A DNA stretch of 59,849 nt, from the IMG/VR virus record IMGVR_UViG_3300045988_094266, one strand, 5' to 3'. Position 1 is the stretch's first letter. Every line of letters begins with the position of its first letter. The stretch is from a virus. This document shows positions 7,645 to 59,514 of the stretch, in pieces. Position numbers and translations under genes: made by a program. The notes below the pieces were generated by a model. That model worked only from the letters and a program-made list of their open reading frames with translations. It made no database searches and had not been told where the DNA came from.

Positions 7645-7840
7645 TTTCTTTAGGTTGATTAAAGTATATCAGATTTCGGGATAGAAAACAAGAGGCAAAC
7701 TGCACAAAATTTCGGCTGGAAAATTGTGCAACTTCTACAAAAGAGAAAATTCGGCGCGCCACGCACGTTAGCGCGCCGCCGAGAAGCCTATTCAAAAAAT
7801 GGGATAAAAAAGAGGGCCGAAGCCCTCTTTTAACTTTCAC
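7645..7840 (-). promoter_or_regulatory. Intergenic cassette copy 4
   Basis: Terminator AGAGGGCcgaaGCCCTCT. GC hairpin CGGCGCGCC..GCGCGCCG. Inverted repeat CTGCACAA..TTGTGCAA. Promoter TTGTTT-17-TATACT. Confidence 0.5.
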
Positions 7841-8291
7841 ATATATTTGCAAGAAATCTTGCAGAAAGTTTAACCATGTCATGGACAGATTCTTCGTTAT
7901 TGCTATTTTTATAGCAAATAAAACCAAGCTGGTCGCCATTCACAAGAATTGGTGTAATAAACATACTTTCCCATTTTGTCGCCGAACTGCGAATATCAAT
8001 CCAGTCATCGGGAACTCTTGTAATTCCAAAGGAACGCGGCCCGCATAAAATTCCATCATTGTCAAAAATAGCCGCGGCGATTCCGTTAGATGAAAGGGCA
8101 TTTTGCATTTGTTTAGCGTAAGAGGAAAATTCTCCCATTATAGAATATTTCTTAAAAACTACGCCGCCATCTTCTTCAAGAAAAATCTCTAATGGGTCGC
8201 CTTCTCTAATATGAAGGTTTCTACGGATTTCCTTTGGAATTACTATCCGGCCCAAATCATCAATACGGCGCACAATTCCAGTAGCTTTCAT
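7830..8291 (-). CDS. AbrB/SpoVT-family transcriptional regulator
   Basis: N-terminal MKATGIVRRIDDLGRIVIPKEIRRNLHIREGDPLEIF matches the AbrB swapped-hairpin DNA-binding domain. The roughly 100-aa C-terminal domain suggests a SpoVT-like protein. Confidence 0.7.
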   Translation of the reverse strand: MKATGIVRRIDDLGRIVIPKEIRRNLHIREGDPLEIFLEEDGGVVFKKYSIMGEFSSYAKQMQNALSSNGIAAAIFDNDGILCGPRSFGITRVPDDWIDIRSSATKWESMFITPILVNGDQLGFICYKNSNNEESVHDMVKLSARFLANICES

Positions 8292-8295
8292 TTTT

Positions 8296-8327
8296 ATCTG
8301 CGGGAGTGCAAGATTTATAGTCTTGCA
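8296..8327. other. Strong hairpin GGGAGTGCAAGA/TCTTGCACTCCC next to the start of the AbrB/SpoVT gene
   Basis: A 12-bp perfect stem. There is no clear U-tract on the minus strand. Confidence 0.35.
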
Positions 8328-8343
8328 CTCCCTTCCTCCCTTC

Positions 8344-32404: not shown

Positions 32405-32429
32405 TGGGTGATAAAGGAGGAAAAGGATT

Positions 32430-35400
32430 GTGGCTAATAATAGAAGATTAAATTATTAGATTGGGTTTGATGTTGATACTGCTGAACTTTACAGAGCAGT
32501 AAACGAGGCAGTTCAATCTTTAAATAAAATCAGTGCCGGTTCTAAAGTTACAGCAGAATTGCGACAAGCTTCTTAGTCTGCGCTAGAGTTATCTACTTAT
32601 ATGCATTAGGCATTTAATCAAGGGACTGGAAAGTTAGATTTAGTAGCTTTTGAAAATAGTTTAAAATCTAGCGGAAGAACTCTTAAAGATTATGCCAACT
32701 CGTTAATTTCGATTGGTACCGAGGGGCAAAAGGCTTTTTTAAATGTAGCAACAGCGATTCAAAAAGCGGAGCTTCCAGCATTGCGCACTGGCAAAATATT
32801 TGATTAGTTATGGATTACTATGAAAAATACTATGAGATGGCAGATTACCTCCACCGCGTTAAATAGTTTTGTGGGAACCATAGAATCAGCTTATGGGTAT
32901 GCACAAGATCTAAATGAATCATTAACAAATATTCGTATAGTTACTGAAAATTCTGCGGAAGACATGGCTAAATTTGCTCAATAGGCAAATGAAGCAGCAA
33001 AAGCATTAAGTACAACTACTGTTGAATATAGTGATGCTGCTTTGATTTATTATCAATAGGGTCTTACTGAATAGGAAGTTTTAGATAGAACTGAAACTAC
33101 TATTAAAATGGCTAATGCCGCAGGAATTAGTGCATAGACCGCTTCGGATCAGCTGACCGCAGTTTGGAACAACTTCTATGATGGAAGTAAGAGTCTTGAA
33201 TATTATGCTGATGTAATGGTGCGTTTAGGCGCCGATACAGCGTCTAGCTCTGATGAAATTTCAGAAGGTATCCAACAATTTGCCTCTGTAGCAGATACAG
33301 TTGGATTAAGTTACGAATATGCTGCTTCTGCTCTTGCTACTGTCACTGCTACGACACGTGAGTCTGCTAATACAGTAGGTACAGCATTTAGAACTTTATT
33401 TGCTCGTATCCAAGGCTTAAATCTTGGAGAAACTCTCGATGATGGCACTACATTAAATAAATATTCTAAAGCTCTTGAAAAAGTGGGTATTGATATTTTT
33501 GATGTTAATGGTGAGATTAAAACTATGGATACCTTACTTGATGAAATGGGTTCAAAATGGGAGACCTTATCTAATGACTAGTAGATTGCTTTGGCTTAGA
33601 CCGTAGCCGGAGTTCGCCAATATACTCGTCTTATTGCACTTATGGATAATTGGGATTTCTTTTAGGAGAATTTAGCTAGTGCTTATGGAGCAGAGGGATC
33701 TCTTTAGGAACAGGCAGATATTTATGCTGAATCTTGGGAAGCTGCTAGAGATAGAGTAAAAGCATCTGCTGAGGATATTTATGATAGTGTCATAAATCCA
33801 GATTTGTATATAAATGCAGATAATGTCTTAACTCCATTTTTATCTGGTATTGCAGACGCCATTGATGCAATGGGAGGGTTAAATGGTATTTTAGCTAGTA
33901 CCGCTTTGTTGATTAATGGGATTTATGGAAATAAGATTGCTGAATCAATGCGTTCTATGGTGGCTAATATAAAAGTTCTATCTGGATTAGAGTAGAATAG
34001 AGCGAGAAATTTGTAGGCATCAGCGGCTGAGATAGCAACTCAATTAGGCTTAACAAACTCTATGTCTTAGGCTGAAAAAAATCTTTTTAATATTATGGTT
34101 GACTAGGCTAATATATAGGGCCAAATAAATAGTAACTACGACGCGATGGATGCTAATGGTCGTAGATTAATTTAGACAGAACAGTTAAAATTAAGTATTT
34201 TGCAAGATTAGTTAAAGACATATTCTTAGTAGTAGATTTAGTCTAGGGAAAATGTATTAAATCTTAGAGATACTATTTATTTTAATATAGGAATAAAAGA
34301 TGGCTGGCAAGAAGAAGTTAAAGCAGAAATAAATAAATTTAATAGTAGAAATAAAAGTAATCAAATTTAGTTAAATATAAGAGCTAATAGTAACCTTGAT
34401 AAAATTTATAATGATGTTACTACTTAGTTAACTAGTTTAATTTAGCAATCTACAAAACTTGATACAGTGTATCAAGAATTTAAAAAACTTGAAAGCGCTG
34501 GAACTGCGACTAGAGACAGCCTTCGTAATTTATTATCTAGTGTTACGGGCAAAGAACATAATTATGCTTAGATTGAATGGCTGACTTAGCAATTAGAGGG
34601 GTTAAAAAATTAGTCTCAAAATGCAAAATTGCAAATTCGTGAACTTGGGACTATTTTATAGACTATGGGAGCCGATCCAAGAGTAGTTACTTCTTATATT
34701 AATGAATTAACAAAATTGGAGTCTGTTACTGCAAGAACAACTGAACAAGAGGCTCGATATTAGGAATTGTTAGCGAAGTTCCCTAGTGTAATTACAAAAG
34801 CATTAATACCAACGAGAGATTGGGCTACAATATTGGTTTAGGTTGGAAGTTCTCTTTCTAGTTTAACTATGATTATGAATGCTTTTTAGAGCATTGGAAG
34901 AATTTTTTCTGATGAAGATATGACTTCAACTGAAAGAATTGTAGCTTTGTTTACTTCTCTTGGTATGTTACTACCCTCTATTATTTCTGTTTATAAAACT
35001 TTAAATATGTTAACTACTGCTCATGCTGTTGCAGCAGCGGCGGACGCCGCGGCAACAGCAGTAGAGGCTTTAGCGACAGAATAGCTTGCTATGGCGAAGC
35101 AGAAAGCCGCTATGGCTTCCGGCATCTTAACTGCTGCAATTATGGTAGCAATAATAGCGATTACTGCAATAACAAGTGCTATAAAAGCATAGCATGAAGC
35201 AACCTTGGCTGCTGCTTAGGCCTCTATTGATGCGGCAAATGCAAAAAAAGAAGAAGCACAAGCGAATAGAGAGTTAATTCAATCTACTCAAAATGCCTTA
35301 TCTACTTATCAAGAAACTGGGGATGGAAAAGAAGAGTTAGATGATTTAACTCGTTAGTTGGCTGAAGCGTATGATTTAGAAGGCAGTGCATTAGCTAGAC

Positions 35401-38400
35401 TAAGTGGATAGTATGAAGATTATAATAGTGTTTTAAAAGCTGCTCAAGAAGCTCAAAGAAGAGAACTTTAGGAAACTTTGTAGTCCCAAGAAGAAGCGTT
35501 ACGTGCGAATGAAACTCTCATTCTTGAAACCGCGAGAGAGGGCGTGGGCCACGTATATTTTGGTGGAAATTATGAGGGGTCTTTTACTGGTTTTAATGAT
35601 TTTTGGAATGGCACCGAAGAAGATACTGCATCTAATATTCTTCTCAATAATGTGGACGCTTTATATAGTAGTTGGAATGACAATGTAATTGGCGGAAGAA
35701 GAAACTTAGCTTTTTCTATAGACCCAAATAATACAGAAGAATTAATTAATTTTTATGATCAATTAAATAATGCTATTAATTTGATGAATAATAGCATGAC
35801 TGTTTCGGAAAGAGGAGCATCTGGACTTTACAATGCTGCTGTTGAGTGGCGAGATAAAATGGAAGAGGTTGTCACTCAATATAAAGAAACTAAAGAGAGT
35901 ATAAATGCTATTCGGGTATAGCTTGGAGAGTTTAATAATTAGACTATTACCGATGATCAAGTATCAAGTTTAGCGTAGTATAAAATTTGGGTTAACGAAG
36001 TTACAGAGGCGCTCACTTCTGCTGGATATGAAGGCGAAGAATTAAACGATATAATCAATGATTTAGTATCTACTTCTCTGAATCCTGATATTAGTGGCTT
36101 TAAAGATATTTATGACGCAATTTTAGAGGTTGAAGAATTAGTCAATGATGAAGAATTAAAAAGTAATCTTGAATCTATTTTTACAGATGAAAATTATGAT
36201 ACTTCTGTATTAAATTTATTAAATTGGGGTGCTTTAACATAGGAGACTTTTTAGGATGCCTATGACAGTGCTAAAAAATATACTGATGCTATTTCCGAAG
36301 TTGAAAACGCAACAGAATCTTTAACTACTGCACAATCTGCCTTAGAAACTCTTGGAGATAGAGATTTAGATCGAGAAGGATTAGAATCACTTTCTAAAAC
36401 TGTTGATTGGGGAAATCAAGAAAAAGGAATTATTGATTTTAATTAGTTCCTTGCTATGACTTTAGTTGAACAATAGAGTTATTTATAGAGGATTATAAAT
36501 GAGTCCTATTAGGCTGTCAATAATGGATTAATAGATTAGATTAGTGAAGCAAAAAAGAGAATAACTGAGCAATAGGATATTTTAAATCAATATAGCGATT
36601 CTGAATTAGAACGTGCAGAAAAAGTTGTTTATGCTTGGGAACAAGTTCGAGAAGCGTATAATGATTATCAAGGTAGCTTAAATGGCGGAGAAGAATTTAA
36701 TCTTGATAATTATACGATTGATTGGGATTTGTTAGGTGAAAATTTTGATTGGGAATCTTTTAAAACCGAAACTGCGGATAACGTAGCTAGTGCATTTGAG
36801 TATGGGACAAAAGAAGCTCAAGATAAAATTGATACTGTAACTTTAGCAGAGTAGCTAATTAGTAGTTTATAGGATGATATAGATTCTAGCACAGCTTAGT
36901 TACAAATAAATGCAGAATTAAATTTTTAGAATCAATTAGATTAGATTGAAAATTCCGTTGACGGAATTGTAAGTGTATTCGATGCTATTTCTGATGGAGT
37001 AAGCTAGACTACCAATGAAGCTGGAGAACAAGTTTGGAGTTTTAGTAGAGAAGCAGCTAAGGCTATTGAATCTATCTATCCAGGTTTTATAGCTAACGCG
37101 GAATTATTAAGGGATGGTACATTTGCTTTAACAGATGAGATGTATCAAGCATTTTATAATAGTTCTTAGGGGCAATTAGCTGTTGATGCTGATACCAAAT
37201 CTAATATGCTTCAAAATCTTATTTCTCTTTTAGAGGCTAAACGAGGAGAGGCTGAAGCTTCGCTTAAGATCGCTGATCAGCTAGCTTCTGGAGAATTAAC
37301 TATAAACGAATTATCAGATGAGCAGAAGAGAACTTTATTAGCGGGATATGTAAATGCTTAGAATCTTGCTAATGGAGAAATGTTAGATGATTAGGTCAAT
37401 AGTTTAACCGCACAAGATACAAATTAGTAGACTTTATGGACTAATGTTAGCGAGTATTCTGCTTAGGGCGCGCAGAACATGAGTACTAATGTATAGTTAA
37501 ATACTCAAAATGTTCTTGCTAATCTTGAAAAAATTAGAGATGCGGCATATGCTACTGGAATTCAAGTATCTCAAATAGGAACTGATAATGTTACTAAGCA
37601 AGATTTTGATACTTCTGCTGTTTCTTTTGATAGTTCGGCTGCAACAACAATAGATACGAGTAACGCTAATGATTTCTTAAATTCTTTAACTGCAAATTTA
37701 GATGTAGAACCTGTAACCGCAGACGATTTAAATATTTATGGTGATGCTAGTGAGGCACTTGAAGCTAAGCAATCTTAGGCAGTTGGAGAAGCGCTAAGGG
37801 CCATTTATTAGGGGAGTATTGATGGGTATAATGAGGCTATAGCAGCAGCAAAAATAGCCTAGAGCAAATTATTAGATTCTATTGATGGAGCTATAGAAGG
37901 GGTAAAGGGAAGTTCAAGTGGCGGAGATAATGAAGGCACTAAGTATGACGAAGAAGATGAAAAGACTCTAAAGGATATTGAAGATAGATACCATGAAATA
38001 ACTCGCGAAATTGAGAATTAGAACGATTTATTAGATGATATTGGAAATAATATAGATAGAGCCTATGGCGCCAATAAACTTCAAGCATACTAGAGAGAAC
38101 TTCAAGAATTAGAGAAATAGCAAGCTAATTATAACAAACTACTTAATGAAGCTGAAACTTATCTTACAAAAGACTAGGCAGATCTTCAAGGGTTGTTTAA
38201 TAATTCTCTTATTTTTGATGAAAATGGAGAAATTGAAGGTTATCAAAGTGTTCTTCAATCTATAATAGATGATTATAATAATAATTTCTTAGCGGATTAT
38301 AATGCTTTTTTAGTTGCCTTTAGTAATCTTACTAAAGATGAATAGGAAGCTAGATAGGCAGAATATGATAGTTGGCAGTTACAAAAGGAAGCTGCTGATG

Positions 38401-41157
38401 AATTATTCCAAGCTCGTTAGGATGCTCTCGCCCAATATGAAGAAACTCTTGACAAAATTCAAGAAGTAAAGGACGAATAGGAAGAACTAGAGAGAAGCAT
38501 CGCAGACAATAGATTGAGTTAGATTGAATATAAACTTGAAGTTGTAATAGAAATAAAAGATGCTAAAGATGCTGTTCGTGAATTAACTAAAAAGATTGCA
38601 GAATCATTTGGTGATGAATTAACTCATGGTATTGAAGTCGCTCGTATTGATGAAAATAGTGTGAACGAAAATATAAAAATAATCAAGGATTATGAAGAAA
38701 CGCTTAAAAGTTATCAAGAAGAATTGGCTAACGCAACGGATGCGACTGATATTGATGGAATTATAAGTAAAATATCTGATTTATAGGGTAAAATAATTTC
38801 TACCGCAGAAGCTCTACTTGATTGGGTAGAGGGTCTTGAAGAAATGTTGCCAGATGCATTAGACGCTGCATCTGAAAGATTCGCTGAATTTACTGATCAA
38901 CTTGATCATAATGAATCAGTTCTTGGACTTATAAAAGAATTGTATACACTTTAGGGGGTTACATATAAAACCGAAGAAGGATTTGAATAGCTCCAAAAAG
39001 TAAGCGAAGAGACAATGAAAGCTCAAATAGCAAATGCGCAATTAAATAAACAGTGGTATGATGGTATTAAACAGGAGCTTTTAGAAGCCTAGAGCGCGTT
39101 AGATGCACTAGGCGGCGATGAAACAGATCCGGCATATGATGGTTTAAAAGCCAATCGAGATGCACTACTAGAAGAATATAATGAAGCCCAATAGGCGATG
39201 TTAAGTTCCGCGCAAGCCGCTATGGAAACTGCACAAGAAATGTATACTTAGGCTATTGAAAGAGCCGTATATGAATTTGGATAGGCGGTTTCTGGTGGAG
39301 TTGGCTTAGATTTGCTACAAGACAAGTTCGATCATTATATTGAGCAAGAAGATAGATATTTAGATAAAGTAAATGAGGCATATGAAGTATCTTCTTGGTA
39401 TAATAAACTTCAATAGGATATTGATAAAGCTACTAATTCTAAAATGAAAGATTAGTTGAAATAGTTACAAGAAGAAATTGATATTCGTAGAGAGAATAAT
39501 ACTTTATCTGAATATGATCTAGAAATTCTTGAAGCCAAGTATAATGTTCTTTAGGCCCAGATGGCTCTTGAAGATGCTCAAAACGCGAAAAATCAGCTTA
39601 GATTAGTGAGAGATAGCCAAGGTAACTGGAATTATCAATACACCGCAGATGCGAGCTAGATAGCGGATGCGGAATAGAATTTACTTGATGCAGAGAATGA
39701 ATGGTATAACATAGCTAAACAATAGGTTGAAGATGTTACTGGAGAAATTATTTCTACTTGGCAGGAATGTCAGGATAAAATAAAAGAGATTTATTCTGAT
39801 ATGACCTTGACTGACGAGGAAAGATCTGCCCGCGCGCAAGAAATCTATTCTTATTATACGCAGAAGGTTAAGGATCTAGAGAACGAAAAACAGATTGCTA
39901 TTTAGGATATGACCGAAGCCGGCAATAAAGCCTTAATTGATATGGCTATTGTTGCGGGAGACGAGGTAAGTGACCTAACTGGAATTACAAGTCAAGAAAT
40001 TCAGGATATTATAGCTAATTCTGGCTCTAGTATTATTGATTTGTTATTATCTGATAATGAATAGATTCAAGATATAGTTGGAAGTAATACAAAACTTATT
40101 GATTTATTTGATAATGTTTTCGCAAAAGATCTTGCTAATATGACTTCTAATGCTGGAAATTTTGAAGATTTTCTATCTAAGGCCATGGACGAAGCAAGTG
40201 GAGCGATGGAAGATTATCAAACTACTGTCTCTGGAGTTGCAGATTAGACTGGAACAAGTCTTGATGATTTAGAAGGTTATCTTGATGATGTTACAACTTC
40301 TACAGAGTTATGTTCTGATGCAGGATCGGAAGCTGTCACTTAGATGTTAGAATAGATAAGCACTATTCAAGATTTAAGTCAAGAATATTTAGACATGGCT
40401 AAATCAGTTAGAGAATATATAAGAGCTCTTGAGGAGGCTGCTAGAGCAGCTGGAAATACAATAGAAAGTGCTGGAGGAATAGATAAAGATGATTTACCTC
40501 CAGCTAATTCAGATCAATCTTCTGATAATAACTCTAGCAATAGTAATAGCGGATCTTCCAGCGGAGGAGCTGGAAGTGGCAATGGAATCCCAGAAGTAGG
40601 AGACGAAGTCATTTATACTGGTGGAACTTATTATCATGATTCTTATGGCACAGATCCAGCAGGTAGACGTGGGCCCGGCAAGAAAGTTAAAATAACTAAT
40701 ATAGCCAAAGGCAGACCATATCCGATTCATGTATAGTCTAATAATTCTGCATATGGTTGGTTAAAAGAAAGTCAAATAAGCGGATTTGATACAGGAGGTT
40801 ATACTGGAGAATTTGATAATGCTAAATTAGCTTTCTTACACGAAAAAGAGTTAGTTTTAAATCAAGAAGATACGAAAAATATTCTCGCGGCGGTTTCTGC
40901 TATAAGAGCTTTTGAACCTAGTTTTATAGCTTCTATAGAGAAAGCGCTTGATGGAAATGCACTATCTATTTCTAATCTTATGGCATCAAGATTAGGATCT
41001 AATACTTAGATTACTCCAGCAGACAACACAGTTGAACCGTATATAAATATTGAGCGAGTTGAGTTCCCAAATGCGACATCTTCTGATGAAATTCAAGATG
41101 CTATTCGTAGTTTAGCTGATGATGCTACTCAATGGGCAAATAGAAGAAAGGGATAAT
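32430..41157 (+). CDS. Tail tape measure protein, about 2909 codons (TAG-containing)
   Basis: GTG start with an AAAGGAGG RBS. Track ORFs 33216, 33804, 35544 and 40395 all lie in one frame. The segment ADVMVRLGADTASSSDEISEGIQQFASVADTVGLSYEYAASALATVTATTRESANTVGTAFRTLFARIQGL resembles the core of TP901-type tape measure proteins. It ends at a TAA. Confidence 0.6.
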
Positions 41158-41180: not shown

Positions 41181-41207
41181 TCCCTATGAGAAAAAGGAGG
41201 ATAAATA

Positions 41208-44200
41208 ATGAATACTGCTTCTGAATCTATCTTTTAGACGATAGATATTCTAGTTGATAAAGCACTATCAAAATTAACTTATGATAAGACTATTTCAGCA
41301 GAGATTAGTAGTATTGTTAATCTTGATAGCGGAGAGTATAAAGTTAAATATTCTGGAAATATAGTTTCTGCTTTTGCGGATGATGTAAAAAAGCAGTATA
41401 AAGTAGGGGATACTGTATATGTTACTATTCCCCAGGATGATTTATCTGCAAGAAAAAGAATTGTTTGTAAGATAAATGAACAATCATTATCATATGGAGA
41501 GATGCTGTCGCTTTCTAATTCAATAATAGAAAAAAGCCCAACATTTGATACAATGTATGATTATGACAAAGATGCGGAAAGGGGCGTCGTAGCAGGCGCA
41601 CCAGCAGATAGTGATTTAAGTTAGTAGATTATTTATAGTGGTAATGAAGAAGGATATCATGGACTATTCCAATAGTATGCAAATAACAATGAGCTTATTA
41701 GAATAAAAGCCTCTTTCTTAACTACTTTCCATTGTGAACACACCAAAGGAAATTATGGTTTAGATATATAGTTCTTTACAAAAAGTGGAGATATAGTTTC
41801 TTATAAGCTTGATTTAAGTTCTTTTAATGGAGACCCCTATCGCTTTTAGGTCTACAGCCCGCAATCTGTGGTTATTAAGGCTCAAAAAAATTATTTAACT
41901 GGACTTAAATAGATTAAGTTATTTGAAGAAAATTTTGTCTATGATCGTTATGTGGAATCTGGTGTAGTTACAGATAAAGAGAATAGAACTGTACCTAACA
42001 TTTTTGTAAAGGATATAGAGATTTAGTTTGTTGAACAGAAAGATTTAACAGATAATTTATATTATTTAGATATTTCGACCCCGCAAGGAAATTCATTTAC
42101 CAACGAGATCTCTTCTCTTGATTTAGTTGGTCGATTAATTTATTAGGGCGATAATATAATAGATGAACAAACTTGTAAATGTAAGTGGTTTGAGCGAGAT
42201 GTAAGTGTTTTGTTAGGTAGCGATTCTTACGATAAAAATGGTGGTGTAGGATGGGCTCCCGTCACAGCGTCCGAGAGCAATACGATGACACTTAAGGCTG
42301 AGCAAGTGAAACATTAGAAGTAGTATAAATTAGTGGTTATATATAATGATAGCGTAACATTGAGTGCGGAAGTAATGATATATAATTTAACAAGTAACTA
42401 TGATTTTTAGCTTAAACAAACAACAGTAGGAGAAGATATCATCATTCAAGTTTAGAACAATGCGGATAACACCGTTCTTATTGGAGATTGGTATATGCTT
42501 TATCCAGATGGAAGCTATACAGCAGTTGGATTATAGCAAAATTCCATCACAGTTACTAATTTGTTATTGTACTCTTCTGTCACTTTTATTTGTGGAGTTT
42601 ATAATAAAGAACATACCGAGATTATCTCTGTATTAGAACATCTTGTCACAAATAGCTCTTCTGAAGAAGATGTAACAATTACTTATAATGGAGAAGATAC
42701 ATTCAGATATGATGCAAATGGAGATATAGCTATTGAAGACGCTGAAAAAGAACGTACTCTTCAAGTTGTTTTAACTTGGAAAGATGGTGTAGGAACTTCT
42801 TATAAAGTAGAATGGATTGGTCCAGATGGAAAAGATATTACTAATTCAAGATATAATCCTAGCGAGTCTATGATTGAAAACCTCTGGGTTGACAATAGTA
42901 ATATTTTACATTATACTATTAAGTAGAAGTATAAAGTTAATTTTAACAATAATACTATCTTAGTTCGTATAATTACTATGGATGAGCAAGAATATTCTTT
43001 CCGAAAAGAAATTCTGTTCTTAAAAGATGGTGATTAGGGTACGAACGGTACTACGTATGTAAGTGCTATTAGACCATTTGACCCTGACACTGGATTGAAA
43101 CTATCTGGATTAACTCCATTAGTTTATAGAGATGAATCTTGGGTAAATGAATTACCTATAAGATGCTATGTATATAAAGATGGAGAATTAATCAATAATA
43201 ATGGTAATTACACCCTATCTTATAAATGGACTGGTGTTAATATTGAATTGCGGGAAGGCGAGAATGATGACCGCAAAATAGCAAGTGGTACAACATAGTT
43301 GATCTCAAATCCCGCAGGTGGATATGTAAAAGTTTAGGTAACTATTAATGACAATAAGAATAATAGAGCCTATGAAATTTACTGTAATTACCCTATTGAT
43401 GTTGCTGTTAATTTTAGTGATGATGAATTAAATAATATTGATATTAGTTCTATTCCTTCTTATATTAAATATACTGCGTCTGGTGTTAATCCATCCTTTT
43501 ATAGCAATAACATTGAATTTATTGTTAATAATTAGGATTATAGTCGCAATATTTCTTCTCTTGTAAAAGAAATTTTAACAGTTGAAGAAAAAGATAATCT
43601 TTATTATCTTGAACCTGCATCTAGTTTTATTTTTGAAGATAATAGTATTGCTTTATTAAAATGTGAATACGAAGGAAAATATATCTACCATCCCGTTATT
43701 TTATATCTTGATACATATGGCAATGAGCTAATAAATGGATGGGATGGCACATAGCTACAAATTGATGAAGAAAATGGTTAGTATATCTTAGCTCCATAGA
43801 TTGGAGCAGGAGAGAAAGATAGTTTTAATCGTTTTACTGGTGTAGTTATGGGAAAAGATAGCGTTCAAGATAAAATAGGTTTATATGGTTATAAAGCTGG
43901 AGTTAATACTTTTGGTTTAATGGAAAATGGAACAGCGTTTTTTGGAGCTAAAAGTGGTGGAGGATAGATCATTATTGATGGAACTTCAGCGAAGATTTAT
44001 GGTGGAGGGAATTCTTCAGAAGAAGGTGGGGATGCCTCTAATGGAATGACTATTACTCTTGCTGATCTTAAAGCAGATGGATCTACCGAAGCTATAAAGA
44101 TTGGCGGAGGAGCTTTTACAGTAAAATATAATGGAACTGTAAAAGCCACCAATGCAGAAGTTTCAGGGACTATTTACGCCTCTTCTGGTAAAATTGGAGG

Positions 44201-45122
44201 AACGAAAACAGGATCTAATGGTTGGACTATTGAAACCAATAGACTATATAGCGGCTCTGGCTCAACGAGAGTTGAATTAAATAGCCAATCTCCAACCAAT
44301 ACTTCTACTCCTACTAATAATAATGATTTTGCTATTTGGGCAGGAAGTGCTACAGCATCAAGTGCTAAATTTTCTGTTTCTAAAGGCGGATTAATTACTG
44401 CTAAATAGGGAAATATTGGAGGTTGGATTCTTTCTTCTAATAAGTTAACTAGTGATAATTATAGAACTGGAATAGCGAGCTCTGGTACTTATCGTTTTTG
44501 GGCAGGAGCTAGTTCTAGCAGTACGGCAGATAGACCAGTTTTCTCTGGATCTTCTTACTTTTATGTTACTAGCTCTGGAGAAATGTAGTGTAAAAATGCA
44601 ACGATTAATGGTTCAATTTATGCAGATGACGGTGAGATTGGTGGCTGGATTATCAGTTCAAATAGAATTTCTGGAGGAAGAACTACACTATATTCAAATG
44701 GTAGAATTGTGTGTGATGATTTTGAATCAGACAATGTAGATATTAGCGGAGATATTAATGCAACTACTTTGACTTGTGATAATGGTGAGATTGGTGGCTG
44801 GATTATCAGTGAAAGCGGATTGGAAAATGGTGCCACAAGACTATATAATGGTTTAGTTTAGACGAATCAAGTAGATATATTTTTAGATAATCGTTGGAGA
44901 AATAAGCTGGGAACTTTAGGATATGTTGAAGGAGAAGATGATTATGGTCCTACTGAGAATATTGGTATTCTTACTGAACGAGGAGATCATAGTATTATTT
45001 TAAAATCTTCTAGAAACATAGCTCTACGAACAGAAGGTGGCGGAATATGGATAACTGGAGGAAGTCTAAATGTAAATGTTTCTAAAGAAAATTAGCACGG
45101 TATCTATGCCCAATTTGCGTAA
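41208..45122 (+). CDS. Large tail/baseplate protein with C-terminal repeated (I/L)GGWI motifs (TAG-containing)
   Basis: AAAGGAGG RBS. About 1300 codons with track ORFs in the same frame. Repeats include GNIGGWILSSNKL, DGEIGGWIISSNRI and NGEIGGWIISESGL. Confidence 0.45.
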
Positions 45123-54389: not shown

Positions 54390-54438
54390 AAAAATGGGGA
54401 GAACCTTAATTTCAAAGGTTCTCCCCATTTTTTATTTC
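54386..54438. terminator. Strong bidirectional terminator at the point where the two strands' genes converge
   Basis: TGGGGAGAACC-ttaatttcaaa-GGTTCTCCCCA flanked by an A8 run and a T6ATTT run. Confidence 0.7.
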
Positions 54439-54533
54439 TCGCAAGGAGGTTTACTATATAAATGATAATGCGGTTTTTCTTCTCCAAACCATTTCCATCT
54501 TAGGTAGTCGTCTAATACTATTGCCAAAAGGCT

Positions 54534-54890
54534 TAAAAAGAACCAGGCGATAGAGAATGGTAAACAAATCTACCCCATAAAATTCAATGGAATATGAGAA
54601 TAATCCCAAATACCTAAGCCTAGTTTTACATTTAATACTAGACCAAAAATTAATTCTAAAGCAGTTATAATTAAAGAGCCTTTTATTCCTTGAGTAAGAA
54701 TGGATTCTTCCCAAAGAATGTTCTCATTCATTAGTCCTATCAATAAAAAACATAAACCGCCTAATAAGAACATAGACCAATGACAGGTTCCAAGACTGAT
54801 AAAAGTTTTATAGAGGAGCTCTATACCGTAATATAGAGTTCCTCCAACCGCGAATAGAATTATATTTTTACTTACTGTCGGTATCTTCAT
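54534..54890 (-). CDS. Small polytopic membrane protein (holin-like?) with one in-frame TAG
   Basis: Three to four hydrophobic segments. The 106-codon track ORF is extended by 11 codons through a TAG. Confidence 0.4.
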
Positions 54891-55530
54891 ATTTTAACTC
54901 AATAGCTTTTAATTTATCTATCGAATCAGCTTCGAATATCTAAGTTTTATATTCTTGCATTAAATGATATTTAGGATATACCGCATTTGAAATAGCTAAA
55001 CTTAGAGCGGATAATTGCTCTAAACTCCATGGCACACATTCTTCGTGTCGAGCGTGCCACTCAAGCGTAGGATTTTCTACTTCAGCCGCGAGAGCGACTT
55101 GATATTGATTGAGATTTAAGCTAATCTCAGACTGGTCCTCCTACGTAATTCCATATTCTTTTCCATCAACCCAAGTTAGTGGGTGGGCAGCAAGATACTC
55201 TGCGAATAATTTCTTGTTTTCCTCTTGTTTGTCATACTTTGCCTAATCTAAATCAGAAGTGAATGTTCCATCTTCTTGATTATATATTGAATAATTAGGA
55301 GTAACATCTGATGGAATTGTTTCTATCTCTAATACTTTTACAGCATTAGATTGATTTAATACATCGGCTTTAATTAGAGTATAATGTGTATCTCCATTTG
55401 AGCCGATAACCCCAGTTCCCTCTTCTTCCTCGCAGGCAACGACAATACCATTTGAGGATTGCAGTTTAATGTAACGTGCTTCTGAAAGAATATCAACTAC
55501 TACATTCTCTCTATTTAATAGAATATACAT
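54868..55530 (-). CDS. Hypothetical protein (3 in-frame TAGs)
   Basis: The 95-codon track ORF extends in frame to a TAA at 54868. Its ATG overlaps the TAA of the RT extension. Confidence 0.35.
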
Positions 55531-55706
55531 TACTTTATTTCAACTCCTTTAAATAATGAACGAAAATAATTGTCCATATCTTGAATTATATAAAAACAAG
55601 TTCCTTTAGAAATATGTGCCCTCCAACCTTGATAGGATTTCTAAATTTCATCTGTTGAAATTTTACCCTCTAGCCATAGCGCTTGCATTTTCTTCAACTT
55701 TCTGCG

Positions 55707-56747
55707 CTAATGAGCCACTTTCTTTTTAAAAGGAATTTGTATTATATGATTAGTGTCTGTGAGATAAAAGTTCCACTTTAAGTATTTTAATGGGGCGTGA
55801 CGTTTGCCGTCCGCGTGAATAGGAGAGATTCTAGTAATAGTAGTCTTTTTCTTATTCATTTTTAATCCTTGCTTATTTAAGCGAACTTCTATTCTCTTTT
55901 CACATTCGGCTAAGTATTGACTGTCATTGTGGAATAAATATAAATCATCCATATAACGACCATAATACTTTATATGTAACTCTTCTTTGATGAAGTGGTC
56001 AATTCCGTTCAATGCTAGCAATGCGAATAATTGTGATGTTTGACTTCCTAATCCAAGACTTTTATTATCATATTCATAGTATTTGCGGCCAGGCTTGAAA
56101 TTAGTGGTACTAATTCTCGTGTATTTGTGCCGTTTACTAATATAATAATCTTTTCCTGGTATGGGAGAGGAATCTTTTGTTAGCTTAAAAGAAAATGTAT
56201 CTATTAAATAACAGCATAGTTGATAAATTCTTTTATCTTTTATCAAACGTTTAGCCGCTTTCTTTAAAGATTTATGGTCAATAGAATCAAAATATTTTTG
56301 AATATCAATTCTTAACCCATAAAAATCTTTTCCTAATCCATATTCTCTATGAGCTTGTTGAAGATGTTTCTTTACTCTTTTTAAAGCAAAGTCTATTCCT
56401 TTTCCTCTTAAAGTAGCACAATTATCGTAGATAAATCTAGGAGTTAATTCTGGTAATAAAACTTGTTCACATAACGCATTTTGTACCAGTCTGTCGTTGA
56501 TATGACACGCTCTTATATCTCTTGGTTTGCCTCGTTCGATTATCGAAAAACAACTAAACACAAGCTATTCGTATTCACACGCTCGCAGATCAGCTTCTGT
56601 TTTTAAAATTGTTTCTATCCTATTCTCTTCAAAATTAATTGTACTATCTTTCCATCGAACGTTTCGGCATACCTTATAAGACGCATCATACATAGTGTCA
56701 AAACTACAAAAACGCTCGAAAGTAGTATCTTGATTTATTTCAGACAT
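55707..56747 (-). CDS. Diversity-generating retroelement (DGR) reverse transcriptase
   Basis: Motifs DRLVQNAL, LGSQTSQ (the DGR-type motif 4, [ILV]GxxxSQ) and the YMDD catalytic box. One in-frame TAG at 56565-67 joins track ORFs 56565..56747 and 55707..56561. The ORF ends at a TAG, so it may read on to the TAA at 55530. Confidence 0.7.
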
Positions 56748-57056
56748 ACTTTCTCCTTATCATGTAGCTATAGTGGTAGCTACTCGAGCTCCACGTCTAC
56801 AGTCTTACTTTATCCACTTTTTCAGTGAAATGGTTAAGTTCTCCTTAGATGAAAAGGCAGATCTACCTATAGTATATTATTCGATAGTTGTAGAGCAAAG
56901 CTCTTTAATGGTCTCTCAATCTCTTCCCCACATAGTGAGTGCAATCCAGAGTAAACCTTAATTAGATGGATAATAATATACTCCGGGGTACTATTTAGGC
57001 GTTGCTCGTTTGCGCTGCTCCGCAGCTTAACTCGCAACATGATAGCTCCATCTAAT

Positions 57057-57156
57057 CCGGCGCGAGCCCGTTGCTGTTGTTGTAGTTGTTGTTGTTCGCA
57101 GATCCATCGTTGTTGACATTGCAAACGTTGTTCGAGTTGTTGTAGTTACGGGACCG
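57057..57156 (-). repeat. DGR template repeat (TR)
   Basis: 100-bp copy of the variable repeat. All 20 mismatches sit at TR adenines on the coding (minus) strand. The frame is AAC-rich (NYNNSNNVCNVNNDGSANNNNYNNSNG). Confidence 0.8.
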
Positions 57157-57186
57157 AAAGATACAGAACTTAACCGCAGAAAAATA

Positions 57187-57681
57187 TTATCGACCTCTCC
57201 TATGGGTTTTAGGAGCCGAATATCTATGCTCGACTATAAGTTTATCTCTATTTTTTCTATCTTGGATTGATTCTTTTACTTTCTTAGTCAATCTAGCTAG
57301 ATGTTCAAAAGATCTTCTTTTCTTTTTGCTGTTCTGAGCATACTAATAAATACATAGGTCGATTTGTCGAAATATACTATCACAATATTCAATCGCTCTA
57401 TTGTGATATTCATTTCTTTTTGTAAGGGTTTCTTTATCTTTTAAGTTTATCCTACACGCCTCATAACAGCAAGCGTGTATACCCTTTCCGCATTTAATTA
57501 TATCGTACCCGAACGCTTGAAGAGGTTGACCCTCTCCAAGCAGTCCAGGTTTGCAGATTTGTTTTCCATCCTTATCAAATTCTCTAGGACGAGTTAAGAC
57601 TAAAATGTAGCCAACCAATTCACGGGCTTTATAAAGACAGTCTTGTTTTGATAGGTGTCTATCCTTTACTTTTACAGACAT
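57187..57681 (-). CDS. Avd-like DGR accessory protein candidate (call rests on position only)
   Basis: It lies between the variable and template repeats, as avd does in Bordetella-type DGRs. The track ORF ends at a TAG and continues to a TAA at 57187. There is no recognisable Avd motif. Confidence 0.3.
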
Positions 57682-57763
57682 TTAAAATTTCCCTCACTTG
57701 AATATATAATTTTTTTATTGGACAATTTAACCTTAACTGTCCCGAATTGTTATTTTGCTGTAT

Positions 57764-59514
57764 TATCCAATGACGAAAGCCGGCGCGAGCCCGCCGCTGC
57801 TGTAGTAGTTGACGTAGGTCGCAGACCCATCGCCGTTGACACCGCAAACGCCGCCCGAGTGGTCGTAGTAACGGGACCGTTCCCAATACCACATCGTTGA
57901 ATTCGTCAACGAACCATTGGCGTTCATCTGGTATTTAACTCTAGTAGAGTTGCTTGTATAGTAACTATAGGCCGTCTAACTTCCTCCAACAGTCCACTCC
58001 TAATAAGAACTAGCATAGCCGCTAGAGCTAGTAAATCCCATCTCACATTCAGAAGGTAGCCAACATTTTGCAGTTGTTTGAACATCCGCAGTATTATTCT
58101 AATTACCATTACTAGCAGAACTTGTCTTCTTAGTAACAGATTTAATAGAAGCGGTTGCGCTACATCTATTACCAAAATCATTGCACAAGGATTGAGCGGT
58201 TGAACCATTCCATAACGCGTTACTACCAAATGATGTACTGTTAGGTAAAGTTCCCGCAGTCTGGAAAGTTAATGTTCCAGTTCCATCCTAATCAGCACCA
58301 ATACAAATCATTGTAGCAGCGTTGGCACCAAGTACCGCACTAGAAAGACTTACAAGTTTCTTTTTACCTACACATTTCTTTCTTTCACTGGAAGAAGCCT
58401 TAGCTGCCCAGGTCTTTAATCCAGCCCACCACTTAGCATCACCAGTAGCAGTTTCAGAACCCCACTCCCAATAGCTTGCTGTTACTGTAACAGTCTTGTT
58501 ACCTGGAGCAGTATGGTTAGTTCCGGCCGCAACTTTAATAGTAATCGTGGTAGAAGAAATAGCTGTACTGCCATCACCTTTAATAGTAAGAATATTACCA
58601 CTTAAAGAGAGGGTAAGACCAGTAACACTAGTTGGAGTATAGCTAATAGCTCCATCTCCCGCGCGAGTAATAGTAACTTTAACGCCAGCACTATAATTAT
58701 CTCCATCAAGAGCAACAGAAGTTGGATTTACGGTTAAACTACCCGCGGCTTTATTAATAACCCAGTTTACATCAAGATTATCGGTTGTCTTATCAGCCCA
58801 TCTATAGTTGCTCTTTAGAGTAAATGTAGCTGTATAAGTTCCTGCGTTAGTAGCGGAAGTAGTTCCACCAATCGTCATATAAGTGGTATTGAAATTATTC
58901 CAATAAGAAGTTCCACTTACTGATTGACTATTACCTGTATAGGTAAGATTACTTTTCCAGGTTGGTTTAGCGACAGATTTACGCTCAACAGTTACCGTAA
59001 ATTTCGCAGATTGAGTTACTTCATTCTCTGTATAAGAAACAGTAATTTGCTAGCTGCCAACTGTAGTTAAGGATGTTGGTGAGCACGTATAACCTGTGAC
59101 AGCCGCGCTTTTACTATCAGAGTAACTCGCTGTAACTACCATTCCTGTTGTTTGAAGGGTGTCGCCATATTCATAGGTCATCTTAGTTGGGTTAGTAGTA
59201 ACCTAAATACTAAGAAGTTTATGAATAACAGTTACCTTCTATGCAGTTTGACAAGTTTCACCGAGTTCTGAATAAGTAATAGTTACTTCAGTAACTCCGT
59301 CTGTTAAAGGACTTGGAGTAACTTGATATCCAGTTACTTCTGCTGTTGTTACAATAACACCATCCATGCCGTAAGATGCGGTAACTACCATTCCAGCAGG
59401 ATTAAATGTGTCACCAGCAAGATAGCTCGTTTTATTAGGGGGAGTGGTTACTTCAATTTTTACAAGAGAGCCTCCACCTTTTCCACCCTACTCAGCTAAA
59501 ATACATTTAGGCAA
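57764..59514 (-). CDS. DGR target protein: tandem bacterial Ig-like domains with a C-terminal VR (about 6 in-frame TAGs)
   Basis: AAGGAGG-TTG start at 59514. Ig-like repeats (MVVTASY...VTGYT..P). The VR is in frame and the ORF ends GLAPAFVIG then TAA. Confidence 0.55.
57780..57879 (-). repeat. DGR variable repeat (VR) at the 3' end of the target gene
   Basis: Encodes ...RYYDHSGGVCGVNGDGSATYVNYYSSGGLAP. The GC-rich IMH-like end GGGCTCGCGCCGG is identical to the TR. Confidence 0.8.

Follow-up and report, generated by a model that had tools for sequence, protein, structure and literature searches.

The prototype of the diversity-generating retroelements (DGRs) is that of the Bordetella phage BPP-1, in which target, accessory protein, template repeat (TR) and reverse transcriptase (RT) follow one another as mtd-avd-TR-brt. 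In the gut phages nd4 and nd12 the domain DUF6273 has been described as a C-lectin-like DGR target (PMC10743442), and in persistent infant-gut phages that recode the stop codon TAG, Lou et al. reported an RT with multiple in-frame TAGs next to a recoded tail-protein target whose variable repeat (VR), near the 3' end, changes over time (bioRxiv 10.1101/2023.08.07.552389). Decoding of TAG as glutamine, mainly in virion genes, is also known from phAss-1 ('Phassvirus'), ~136-kb human gut phages with a predicted Clostridia host (PMC10607447). TAG-recoded DGRs in gut phages and DUF6273 as a DGR target are, then, already known. Here we describe a locus in a viral DNA of 59,849 nucleotides, IMG/VR record IMGVR_UViG_3300045988_094266 (this whole stretch is called the window below), which we consider with high confidence to be a complete, recently active DGR in a phage that reads TAG as glutamine. 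On the minus strand the order is target gene, accessory gene, TR and RT, exactly as a first-pass annotation of this DNA had it, and the core of the cassette comprises:

57763..59514, minus strand: target gene, 583 aa, with a TTG start, an AAGGAGG ribosome-binding site (RBS), eight in-frame TAG codons and a TAA stop
57780..57879, minus strand: VR, at the 3' end of the target gene, ending 14 nt before the stop, its own 3' end being GGGCTCGCGCCGG (57780-57792)
57187..57681, minus strand: accessory gene for a 164-aa protein of pI 9.7, with a single in-frame TAG (codon 113)
57057..57156, minus strand: TR, non-coding, with 35 adenines and 14 AAC triplets, starting 30 nt after the accessory stop and ending in GGGCTCGCGCCGG
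55530..56747, minus strand: DGR RT gene, 405 aa, RBS AAGGAG at 56753-56758, TAG at codons 61, 347 and 369, TAA stop at 55530

Two gene ends in this list depart from the first-pass annotation, which had placed the end of the RT at 55707 and that of the target at 57764. Positions 55707-55709 are an in-frame TAG, past which the RT continues to a TAA at 55530-55532, and the stop codon of the target occupies 57763-57765. That reading of the genes had overlooked the recoding altogether (target, accessory gene and RT hold 8, 1 and 3 in-frame TAGs, respectively).

The repeats carry most of the argument. A repeat search of the region returned one long direct repeat, 57054-57156 and 57777-57879, 103 nt in length and 80% identical. 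Read on the minus strand, the copies mismatch at 21 positions over these 103 nt and at 20 over the 100 nt of TR and VR, and every mismatch is an adenine in the TR; base-by-base realignment of 57057-57156 with 57780-57879 thus reproduces the 20 adenine-templated differences counted earlier, 20 out of 20 (hypergeometric chance of all 20 falling on the 35 adenines of 100 positions, ~6e-12). Over the longer span the TR has 36 adenines, of which the 21 changed ones are replaced in the VR by G (14), T (4) and C (3). The description of the TR reading frame as packed with AAC is likewise accurate, with 14 AAC and one AAT among 33 codons, and in the VR frame no TR codon can be turned into a stop by substitution of its adenines. 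Both repeats close with the same GC-rich 13-nt element, GGGCTCGCGCCGG, at 57057-57069 and 57780-57792, an identity that had also been pointed out before, and right after it TR and VR diverge completely; a 21-bp IMH-like segment (initiation of mutagenic homing) was not recognisable, and no IMH/IMH* pair could be defined beyond the 13-nt element. The TR lies in the intergenic region between accessory gene and RT, 309 nt upstream of the RT start codon, and the VR encodes about residues 546-578 of the 583-aa target, i.e., it falls within the last ~38 aa. A search of the whole window for a second VR or a remote target found none.

Related phages tell the same story. Starting from the accessory protein we reached contigs from independent metagenomes, and 28 IMG/VR contigs, the longest of 148 kb, were then retrieved through the invariant TR core GCGAACAACAACAACTACAACAACA (relatives are referred to below by L numbers). 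The same cassette is present in all longer loci with called genes that were inspected (L001, L004, L008, L009 and L011), and the TR is nearly invariant in 40 related loci. Among close genomes from different samples (the window, L001 and L002), VRs vary at 25 of the 35 adenine sites, against 1 of the 65 non-adenine sites (Fisher 2e-14). Over 26 distinct TR/VR pairs of related contigs there are 486 mismatches at adenine sites, the ~3 'non-A' mismatches per pair in this count arising mostly where the search window passes the 5' repeat boundary by 3 nt. In comparison with four relatives the VR is 18-22% divergent and the rest of the cassette 1.3-2.3%, a difference of ~10-fold; VRs this far apart in cassettes this close, with mismatches at adenines only, indicate that VR turnover is recent. 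Taken as a whole, the pattern reads as the signature of recent, repeated mutagenic homing, and A-only mismatches combined with an invariant TR and a hypervariable VR across relatives bear out the earlier proposal of a complete DGR with adenine-specific homing.

The single non-adenine position that varies is a C/G within the GC-rich element (GGGCTCGCGCCGG or GGGCTGGCGCCGG), and TR and VR agree on it within each genome (L001, L002, L016 and L019). A base shared in this way by the TR and VR of one genome suggests that the transferred tract, or alternatively concerted evolution, extends to within 8 nt of the repeat end. Some relatives deviate in layout. In L011 (7686-9941) the target has 751 aa, TR and VR lie 1,481 nt apart, compared with ~725, and the frame runs past the VR, which is internal and followed by extra C-terminal sequence. 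In L010 (10942-12152), a relative of 135.6 kb, gene calling gives for the RT region no more than a product of 142 aa with a gap behind it; the DGR may have decayed there, as in the RT deletion of Lou et al., or the call may be an artefact of recoded DNA. In L001 (3507-3983), L008 (4951-5556) and L011 (6599-7222) the DGR target is preceded, at a distance of a few kb, by a gene for a serine recombinase (Resolvase), a location that corresponds to DNA beyond the window end.

Under the standard code (table 11) none of the three genes, target, accessory and RT, is open. Frames of at least 100 codons from stop to stop cover 42% of the window in the standard code, 93.5% with TAG readthrough and 50% with TGA readthrough. 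Opposite TAG in the orthologues of related contigs, 80 of 180 substitutions are glutamine codons (CAA 59, CAG 21), compared with a glutamine background of 2.4%; TAG is mostly exchanged with CAA/CAG, which argues that it encodes glutamine (code 15). Judged by its frames and substitutions, the window uses genetic code 15 throughout. The use of TAG differs by module. Of the glutamine-type codons, TAG accounts for 2% in the left arm (minus strand, 1.4-15 kb; G+C 0.38-0.44), for 49% in the virion module (plus strand, 16-54 kb; G+C ~0.31-0.37) and for 28% in the DGR unit. The virion module includes a giant protein in a single plus-strand frame of 2,914 codons (32415-41156) with 98 in-frame TAGs and no other stop, followed by a frame of 1,306 codons with 27 TAGs (41205-45122) that has no PHROG match. 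The TAG-poor left arm encodes on the minus strand a MazE/SpoVT-type regulator (7830-8357), a PTH2 peptidyl-tRNA hydrolase (13068-13580), a microbial-type PARG-like protein (13490-14359) and a FolD-like dehydrogenase/cyclohydrolase (14835-15659, with 4 TAGs). A peptidyl-tRNA hydrolase in a stop-codon-recoded phage may merit a look.

The RT matches RVT_1 in Pfam (3e-16) and phrog_1423 in PHROGs (1e-83), and its best relative of solved structure is the Bordetella DGR RT, bRT (8ub7, 3.5e-15), ahead of group II intron RTs (1e-6). Both the LGSQTSQ motif and the YMDD box named in the first-pass annotation are there: LGSQTSQLFA aligns with IGSLTSQLFA of bRT, YMDD with YMDD, and motif 4 fits the DGR-type [I/L/V]GxxxSQ. 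Homology to other DGR RTs covers residues 8-403. In tblastn the nearest phage RTs, with 28-35% identity over more than 93% of the length, are those of nd12, Roseburia phage Shimadzu and the Faecalibacterium phages Toutatis, Lelie and Brigit, with Vibrio, Bordetella and crAss-like phages also among the matches; all of these we take to be established DGR carriers. All NCBIfam group II, retron and Drt models stayed below cutoff (73 vs 300, 49 vs 200 and 31 vs 235 bits). By its motifs and best matches, rather than by a tree, the RT belongs to the DGR clade.

The target combines two N-terminal Ig-like Big_3 domains, a beta-rich middle and a C-terminal, C-type-lectin-like DUF6273. Pfam scores Big_3 at 6e-14 (best stretch aa 107-176) and DUF6273 at 1e-9 (aa 430-582), and the protein also matches phrog_37900. 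The VR (~aa 546-578) lies inside DUF6273, at its C-terminal end. The earlier description of an in-frame, C-terminal VR in a protein of tandem Ig domains therefore holds for frame and position only: the Ig-like part is confined to the N-terminal third, and a location of the VR within an Ig-like domain, which we considered, was rejected since the Big_3 matches are N-terminal and the VR is in DUF6273. A model of a 60%-identical homologue of the target domain (pLDDT, predicted local distance difference test, 95) retrieved with Foldseek the N-terminal DUF6273 domain of the Thomasclavelia IgA peptidase (9qa6, E 2e-4) and, with weak E-values, the Legionella Lcl C-terminal domain, CD23, LOX-1, CD94/NKG2A, MBP and EgtB. 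On this modelled structure, the VR is displayed on the canonical DGR fold, the C-type-lectin-like one, and not in an Ig domain. The target gene stands at the end of a block of tail and tail-fibre genes and is convergent to it, and its product is most likely a receptor-binding or adhesin protein on the phage surface.

The accessory protein is harder to place. The first-pass annotation had called it an Avd-like ORF, and sequence searches give no match to Avd in Pfam, NCBIfam, PHROGs, a phmmer search of the PDB or a family-profile search of the PDB, including at E = 10; Pfam on all 33 members of the accessory family, again at E = 10, was negative too, as was tblastn against phages. The profile PF05635 (Avd / 23S rRNA intervening-sequence protein family), too, gives no significant match. 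The protein has 91 close homologues, nearly all of 160-165 aa and none with a Pfam domain, and a family-profile search of 1.84 billion representatives returned only 28 proteins, the weakest full-length ones, of ~137 aa, having no insertion of the kind described below. What supports the name is of another kind. Modelled with AlphaFold2 on a homologue of 98% identity (pLDDT 89), the fold is that of a four-helix bundle in which helices 1 and 2 are separated by an inserted beta-hairpin, and this predicted bundle is superposable on the Avd fold. The protein is strongly basic (pI 9.7; 38 K+R vs 20 D+E). The phages Shimadzu and Toutatis have an Avd gene in the same place, between target and TR, and their annotated Avds are also without a Pfam match. 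A remote chain leads from the family profile to P0152 (E 4e-6), one of these ~137-aa proteins, and from P0152 to the Shimadzu protein (E 4e-5, collinear over 134 aa), whose 'Avd' label is the depositors' annotation; direct hhalign of the accessory protein with the Shimadzu Avd gives E 0.0015 and 17% probability, and with the Toutatis Avd a meaningless alignment. On the strength of fold, charge, position and remote homology we call the protein Avd-like, and not a demonstrated member of PF05635: the model and these three lines of evidence together make it a predicted Avd-like four-helix bundle. The earlier designation is to that extent upheld, though the Avd-profile search of the 57187..57681 ORF that had been suggested along with it came back empty (Pfam, NCBIfam, PHROGs).

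Within the accessory family H69, C100 and C110 are invariant and C72 nearly so, and the most conserved part of the protein is a 26-aa insertion, PREFDKDGKQIxKPGLLGEGQPLQAFG. Neither this insertion nor the conserved cysteines and histidine are known from the Bordetella Avd. They may form a metal site or an element that contacts RNA or the RT.

The spacer of ~310 nt between TR and RT (309 nt to the RT start) is conserved in blocks. Rfam assigns it to no family and yields only sub-threshold matches to terminator hairpins, but comparison of the related lineages resolves the following elements on the same strand as the genes:

57165..57175, minus strand: 5' strand GGUUAAGUUCU of a duplex enclosing the TR, just upstream of the TR
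56832..56842, minus strand: 3' strand AGAACUUAACC of the duplex enclosing the TR, ~215 nt downstream of the TR
56960..57057, minus strand: structured domain 3' of the TR (RNAalifold and pair counts, 11 lineages)
57047-57057 with 56960-56970, minus strand: P1, 11 bp, GAUUAGAUGGA paired with UCCAUCUAAUU, the closing helix around the interrupted stem P2, capped by P3
57031-57038 with 57001-57008, minus strand: P2, an interrupted stem
57014-57026, minus strand: P3, a hairpin
56981-56989, minus strand: conserved single-stranded ACCCC(G/A)GAG within the domain 3' of the TR
56763..56829, minus strand: two conserved hairpins upstream of the RT RBS, one at 56813-56829 and a long interrupted stem at 56763-56801

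In the domain 3' of the TR, 94.8% of cells (11 lineages) are paired, compared with 30-48% when slid, and 11 of 28 pairs show compensatory changes, a level reached in 0 of 500 shuffles. In the 11-bp duplex that encloses the TR, 7 lineages give 96.1% pairing, which drops to 26-58% on sliding, and 3 of the pairs show compensatory changes. For the consensus structure that comprises the stem 56763-56801, a small 5' hairpin and a pairing of a conserved upstream pyrimidine tract with the RT RBS, the figures are 98.7% paired and 10 compensatory pairs, again with 0 of 500 shuffles as high, and in the hairpin 56813-56829, compared by eye only, CACU/AGUG changes to CGUU/AACG and CGUC/GACG. These RNA elements are of the same kinds as those of the Bordetella DGR RNA, and both element types were predicted by Handa et al. 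in 207 of 278 Avd-containing DGRs. By analogy, we propose the domain 3' of the TR as a protein-binding and priming domain, the counterpart of the Bordetella Sp region, and the enclosing duplex as the counterpart of the Bordetella 'cPRT Stop' duplex; their functions would then be the same.

Further features of the spacer are of a more tentative nature. The P1 3' strand TCCATCTAATT (56960-56970) has a second, conserved near-copy in TTCATCTAAGG (56843-56853), which could take its place opposite the P1 5' strand. Next to this near-copy lies a pyrimidine tract (CUUUUC.UCU) that RNAalifold pairs with the RT RBS, AAGGAGAAAG (56745-56758), with one compensatory change in L021. On this thin evidence, the near-copy and the RBS pairing could constitute an RNA switch or a translational control of the RT. 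A priming duplex of the Bordetella type (TR117-129 with Sp47-56) was looked for by eye, and we make no claim of it: only 3-4 G:C pairs with the conserved CCCC(A/G)G motif were seen, without covariation. One more conserved element lies on the other side of the accessory gene:

57720..57743, minus strand: conserved motif GGGACAGT..TTAAA, 36 nt downstream of the VR, between the target and accessory genes

The motif, in the form GGGACAGT(n)4-5(G/A)ATTAAA, recurs 35-60 nt 3' of the VR in L001, L007, L008, L016, L018 and others, and in the window it can be drawn as a hairpin. Its role may be that of a promoter, of another regulatory site or of the hairpin that BPP-1 has downstream of its VR. As a hairpin of the BPP-1 type it was rejected: folding is no better than that of shuffled sequence (z = -0.1) and the pairing is not kept in other lineages, leaving a sequence motif only.

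The cassette appears to belong to a longer unit, bounded by the features below:

54868-55530, minus strand: gene following the RT, weak DUF4376 match
54432-54890, minus strand: gene for a membrane protein, PF06541
54389..54433, bidirectional: terminator hairpin with a perfect 19-bp stem, separating the convergent virion and DGR units

Both post-RT genes also follow the RT in L001, L004 and L008, and the terminator hairpin is the only source of the sub-threshold Rfam matches to 'ctRNA' and a plastid 3'-UTR. A minus-strand unit from ~59.6 to 54.4 kb would be transcribed, carrying target, accessory gene, TR, RT and the two additional genes. In its RNA, the portion 57175-56763 with the 100-nt TR has the structure that covariation supports, the 11-bp duplex enclosing the TR and the three-helix domain directly after it. 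If the Bordetella bRT-Avd-RNA structure is a guide, RT and the basic Avd-like protein would bind this RNA and self-prime cDNA synthesis across the TR, with random nucleotides being inserted opposite template adenines as in Bordetella. The cDNA would then replace the VR at the target 3' end, GGGCTCGCGCCGG marking the 3' boundary; the outcome of homing is seen in the A-only TR/VR differences and the differing VRs of near-identical genomes, while the route to it is taken from the known system. In consequence, 15 Asn codons (14 AAC, 1 AAT) and a few other A-containing codons would be randomised on the C-type-lectin-like DUF6273 surface with no stop arising, and the diversified part would probably be the ligand-binding tip of a phage surface protein. 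As RT, accessory protein and target all contain TAG, their full-length products need amber suppression, and expression of the DGR would probably depend on the late phase of infection, in which recoding is in force. It is possible, although we are inclined to doubt it, that recoding, together with sequestration of the RT RBS by the pyrimidine tract, acts as a timing gate, such that the DGR assembles only late in lytic infection and the VR is diversified in replicating genomes shortly before they are packaged. If this were true, the ~310-nt spacer would also be a regulatory RNA, possibly one that switches partners of the P1 strand (56960-56970 or 56843-56853).

Several considerations weigh against a complete and active DGR in a TAG-recoded phage or leave parts of that reading less secure. 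Both structural models are of homologues and not of the window's own proteins (98% identical for the accessory protein, 60% for the target domain), and among the C-lectin Foldseek matches the E-values are weak except for the DUF6273 domain of 9qa6. That the target is a tail protein is plausible by analogy, from its position beside tail and tail-fibre genes; the priming site and the protein-binding roles of the RNA helices are likewise analogies. VR variability was seen between samples only, as opposed to within one population. No tRNA, including a suppressor tRNA(CUA), was found in the 59.8-kb window or in 22 flanks of relatives, which says little as the window is less than half of a ~135-155-kb genome, and some published recoded phages have no suppressor tRNA (PMC10607447); the manner in which TAG is decoded is deduced from codon substitutions and from published related phages. 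One could take the in-frame TAGs for real stops and the RT, accessory gene and target, each broken under table 11, for pseudogenes or short ORFs in a standard-code genome. We find this scarcely credible in view of the rise in long-ORF coverage from 42% to 93.5% with TAG readthrough, against 50% with TGA, a 2,914-codon frame with 98 TAGs and no other stop, orthologues that exchange TAG mainly with CAA and CAG, DGR-RT homology that spans the TAGs (residues 8-403) and a use of TAG that varies between modules (2-49%), as it does in recoded phages already published. Just as hard to entertain is an RT from some other retroelement or defence system (group II intron, retron, Drt or Abi) next to a repeat pair that stems from an unrelated duplication or gene conversion: although the top NCBIfam matches are to a group II intron RT/maturase model (73 bits) and then to a Drt3a model, those scores are far under the model cutoffs, the best solved relative is the Bordetella DGR RT and motif 4 carries the DGR-type SQ signature, the RT of the relatives is always accompanied by TR, VR, accessory gene and DUF6273 target, and neither duplication nor gene conversion can explain mismatches confined to the adenines of one copy.

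A DGR that is genuine but fossil, its repeats and genes persisting after diversification had ceased and its VR differences being old, is a more serious contender, and still a very improbable one. The activity data are between-sample comparisons, not reads, the RT of L010 is called only as a 142-aa fragment, and gut phages are reported to have lost a recoded DGR RT by deletion (Lou et al., bioRxiv 10.1101/2023.08.07.552389). Yet the RT of the window is full length (405 aa) with YMDD intact, its three TAGs read as glutamine codons and not as disruptions, VRs 19-22% apart occur in genomes only 1.3-2.2% apart elsewhere in the cassette, with TR/VR mismatches at A only, and the TR, the flanking RNA helices and the accessory gene are visibly under purifying and compensatory selection. 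Somewhat more room is left for doubt about the 164-aa protein, which might be an unrelated helical protein and no functional equivalent of Avd, the RT working alone or with a host factor. Its lack of any Avd profile or sequence match, its tiny and idiosyncratic family (28 representatives in 1.84 billion proteins) and an insertion and conserved Cys/His that are not known from Avd all speak for such a view, which we nevertheless regard as unlikely: the protein is strongly basic like Avd, is always encoded between target and TR, as in Shimadzu and Toutatis, is linked to the Shimadzu Avd by a full-length chain of remote homology and co-occurs strictly with the RT in relatives. We thus retain a complete, recently active DGR with an Avd-like accessory protein.

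Under the standard code this locus breaks up into short ORFs, an annotation trap in which DGR detectors that need a full RT and target ORF can miss or truncate the element. The ~40 related loci, with an invariant TR and independent VRs, provide evidence from nature both for DGR activity and for where transfer stops on the 3' side. The RNA elements supported by covariation extend the Bordetella architecture to a distant DGR lineage, the nearest relatives of which infect Gram-positives (with a host among the Clostridia being probable here), and such an architecture is useful for engineering DGR-based mutagenesis systems. The 164-aa Avd-like family, invisible to current Avd profiles, could join DGR annotation pipelines.

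The phage itself is uncultured, its relatives have genomes of 130-155 kb and its distant catalogued relatives come from human gut samples. Neither the cassette nor 25 kb of the virion module had a megablast match among 50,697 phage records. Going by the portal protein, the closest genomes in the catalogue are a human-faecal contig without annotation (51% identity) and, as the closest named one, phAss-1 (36%). With phAss-1 the phage shares the genome size class and TAG = Gln; the two are, however, distant, the description of phAss-1 mentions no RT or DGR, and phAss-1 has three suppressor tRNA genes, compared with none in the window (PMC10607447). The infant-gut DGRs of Lou et al. (bioRxiv 10.1101/2023.08.07.552389) are alike in having a TAG-recoded RT and an adjacent recoded target with its VR near the 3' end, whereas the one RT printed there is clearly different and neither an accessory protein nor RNA elements are described in that work. 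Gut Clostridia phages (Shimadzu, Toutatis, Brigit, Lelie, nd4 and nd12) have the nearest RTs and DUF6273 targets, including the Shimadzu tail fibre, and Shimadzu and Toutatis also the layout of target, Avd, TR and RT. These phages are smaller, however (33-62 kb vs 130-155 kb for the relatives of the window), and their records, to go by the intact gene calls, appear to be annotated under the standard code. Their Avd-type proteins are without the insertion and shorter, that of Shimadzu having 136 aa, and in the 'tentaclins' of nd4 and nd12 the lectin domain is N-terminal, whereas here it is C-terminal, after the Ig-like domains.

Set against BPP-1, the locus has the same order of target, accessory gene, TR and RT, a VR at the target 3' end that closes with a GC-rich element common to the TR, A-only mutagenesis on AAC-rich codons, an RT with IGxxxSQ and YMDD, and, on the models, a basic four-helix-bundle accessory protein and a variable domain of C-type-lectin fold. 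It differs from BPP-1 in an RT whose similarity to bRT is remote (E 3.5e-15, in two partial stretches), an accessory protein with a 26-aa beta-hairpin insertion and no detectable sequence similarity to Avd, a target composed of N-terminal Big_3 and a DUF6273-type lectin, as opposed to the Mtd architecture, a spacer of ~310 nt, compared with ~140 nt for the Bordetella Sp, and three genes that all require TAG = Gln decoding. What is particular to this locus, i.e., a divergent, insertion-bearing Avd-like family, a well-resolved RNA architecture and a recoded context, amounts to useful details and not to surprises; it is an ordinary case of a known system, and the mechanism of DGRs as known is unchanged by it.

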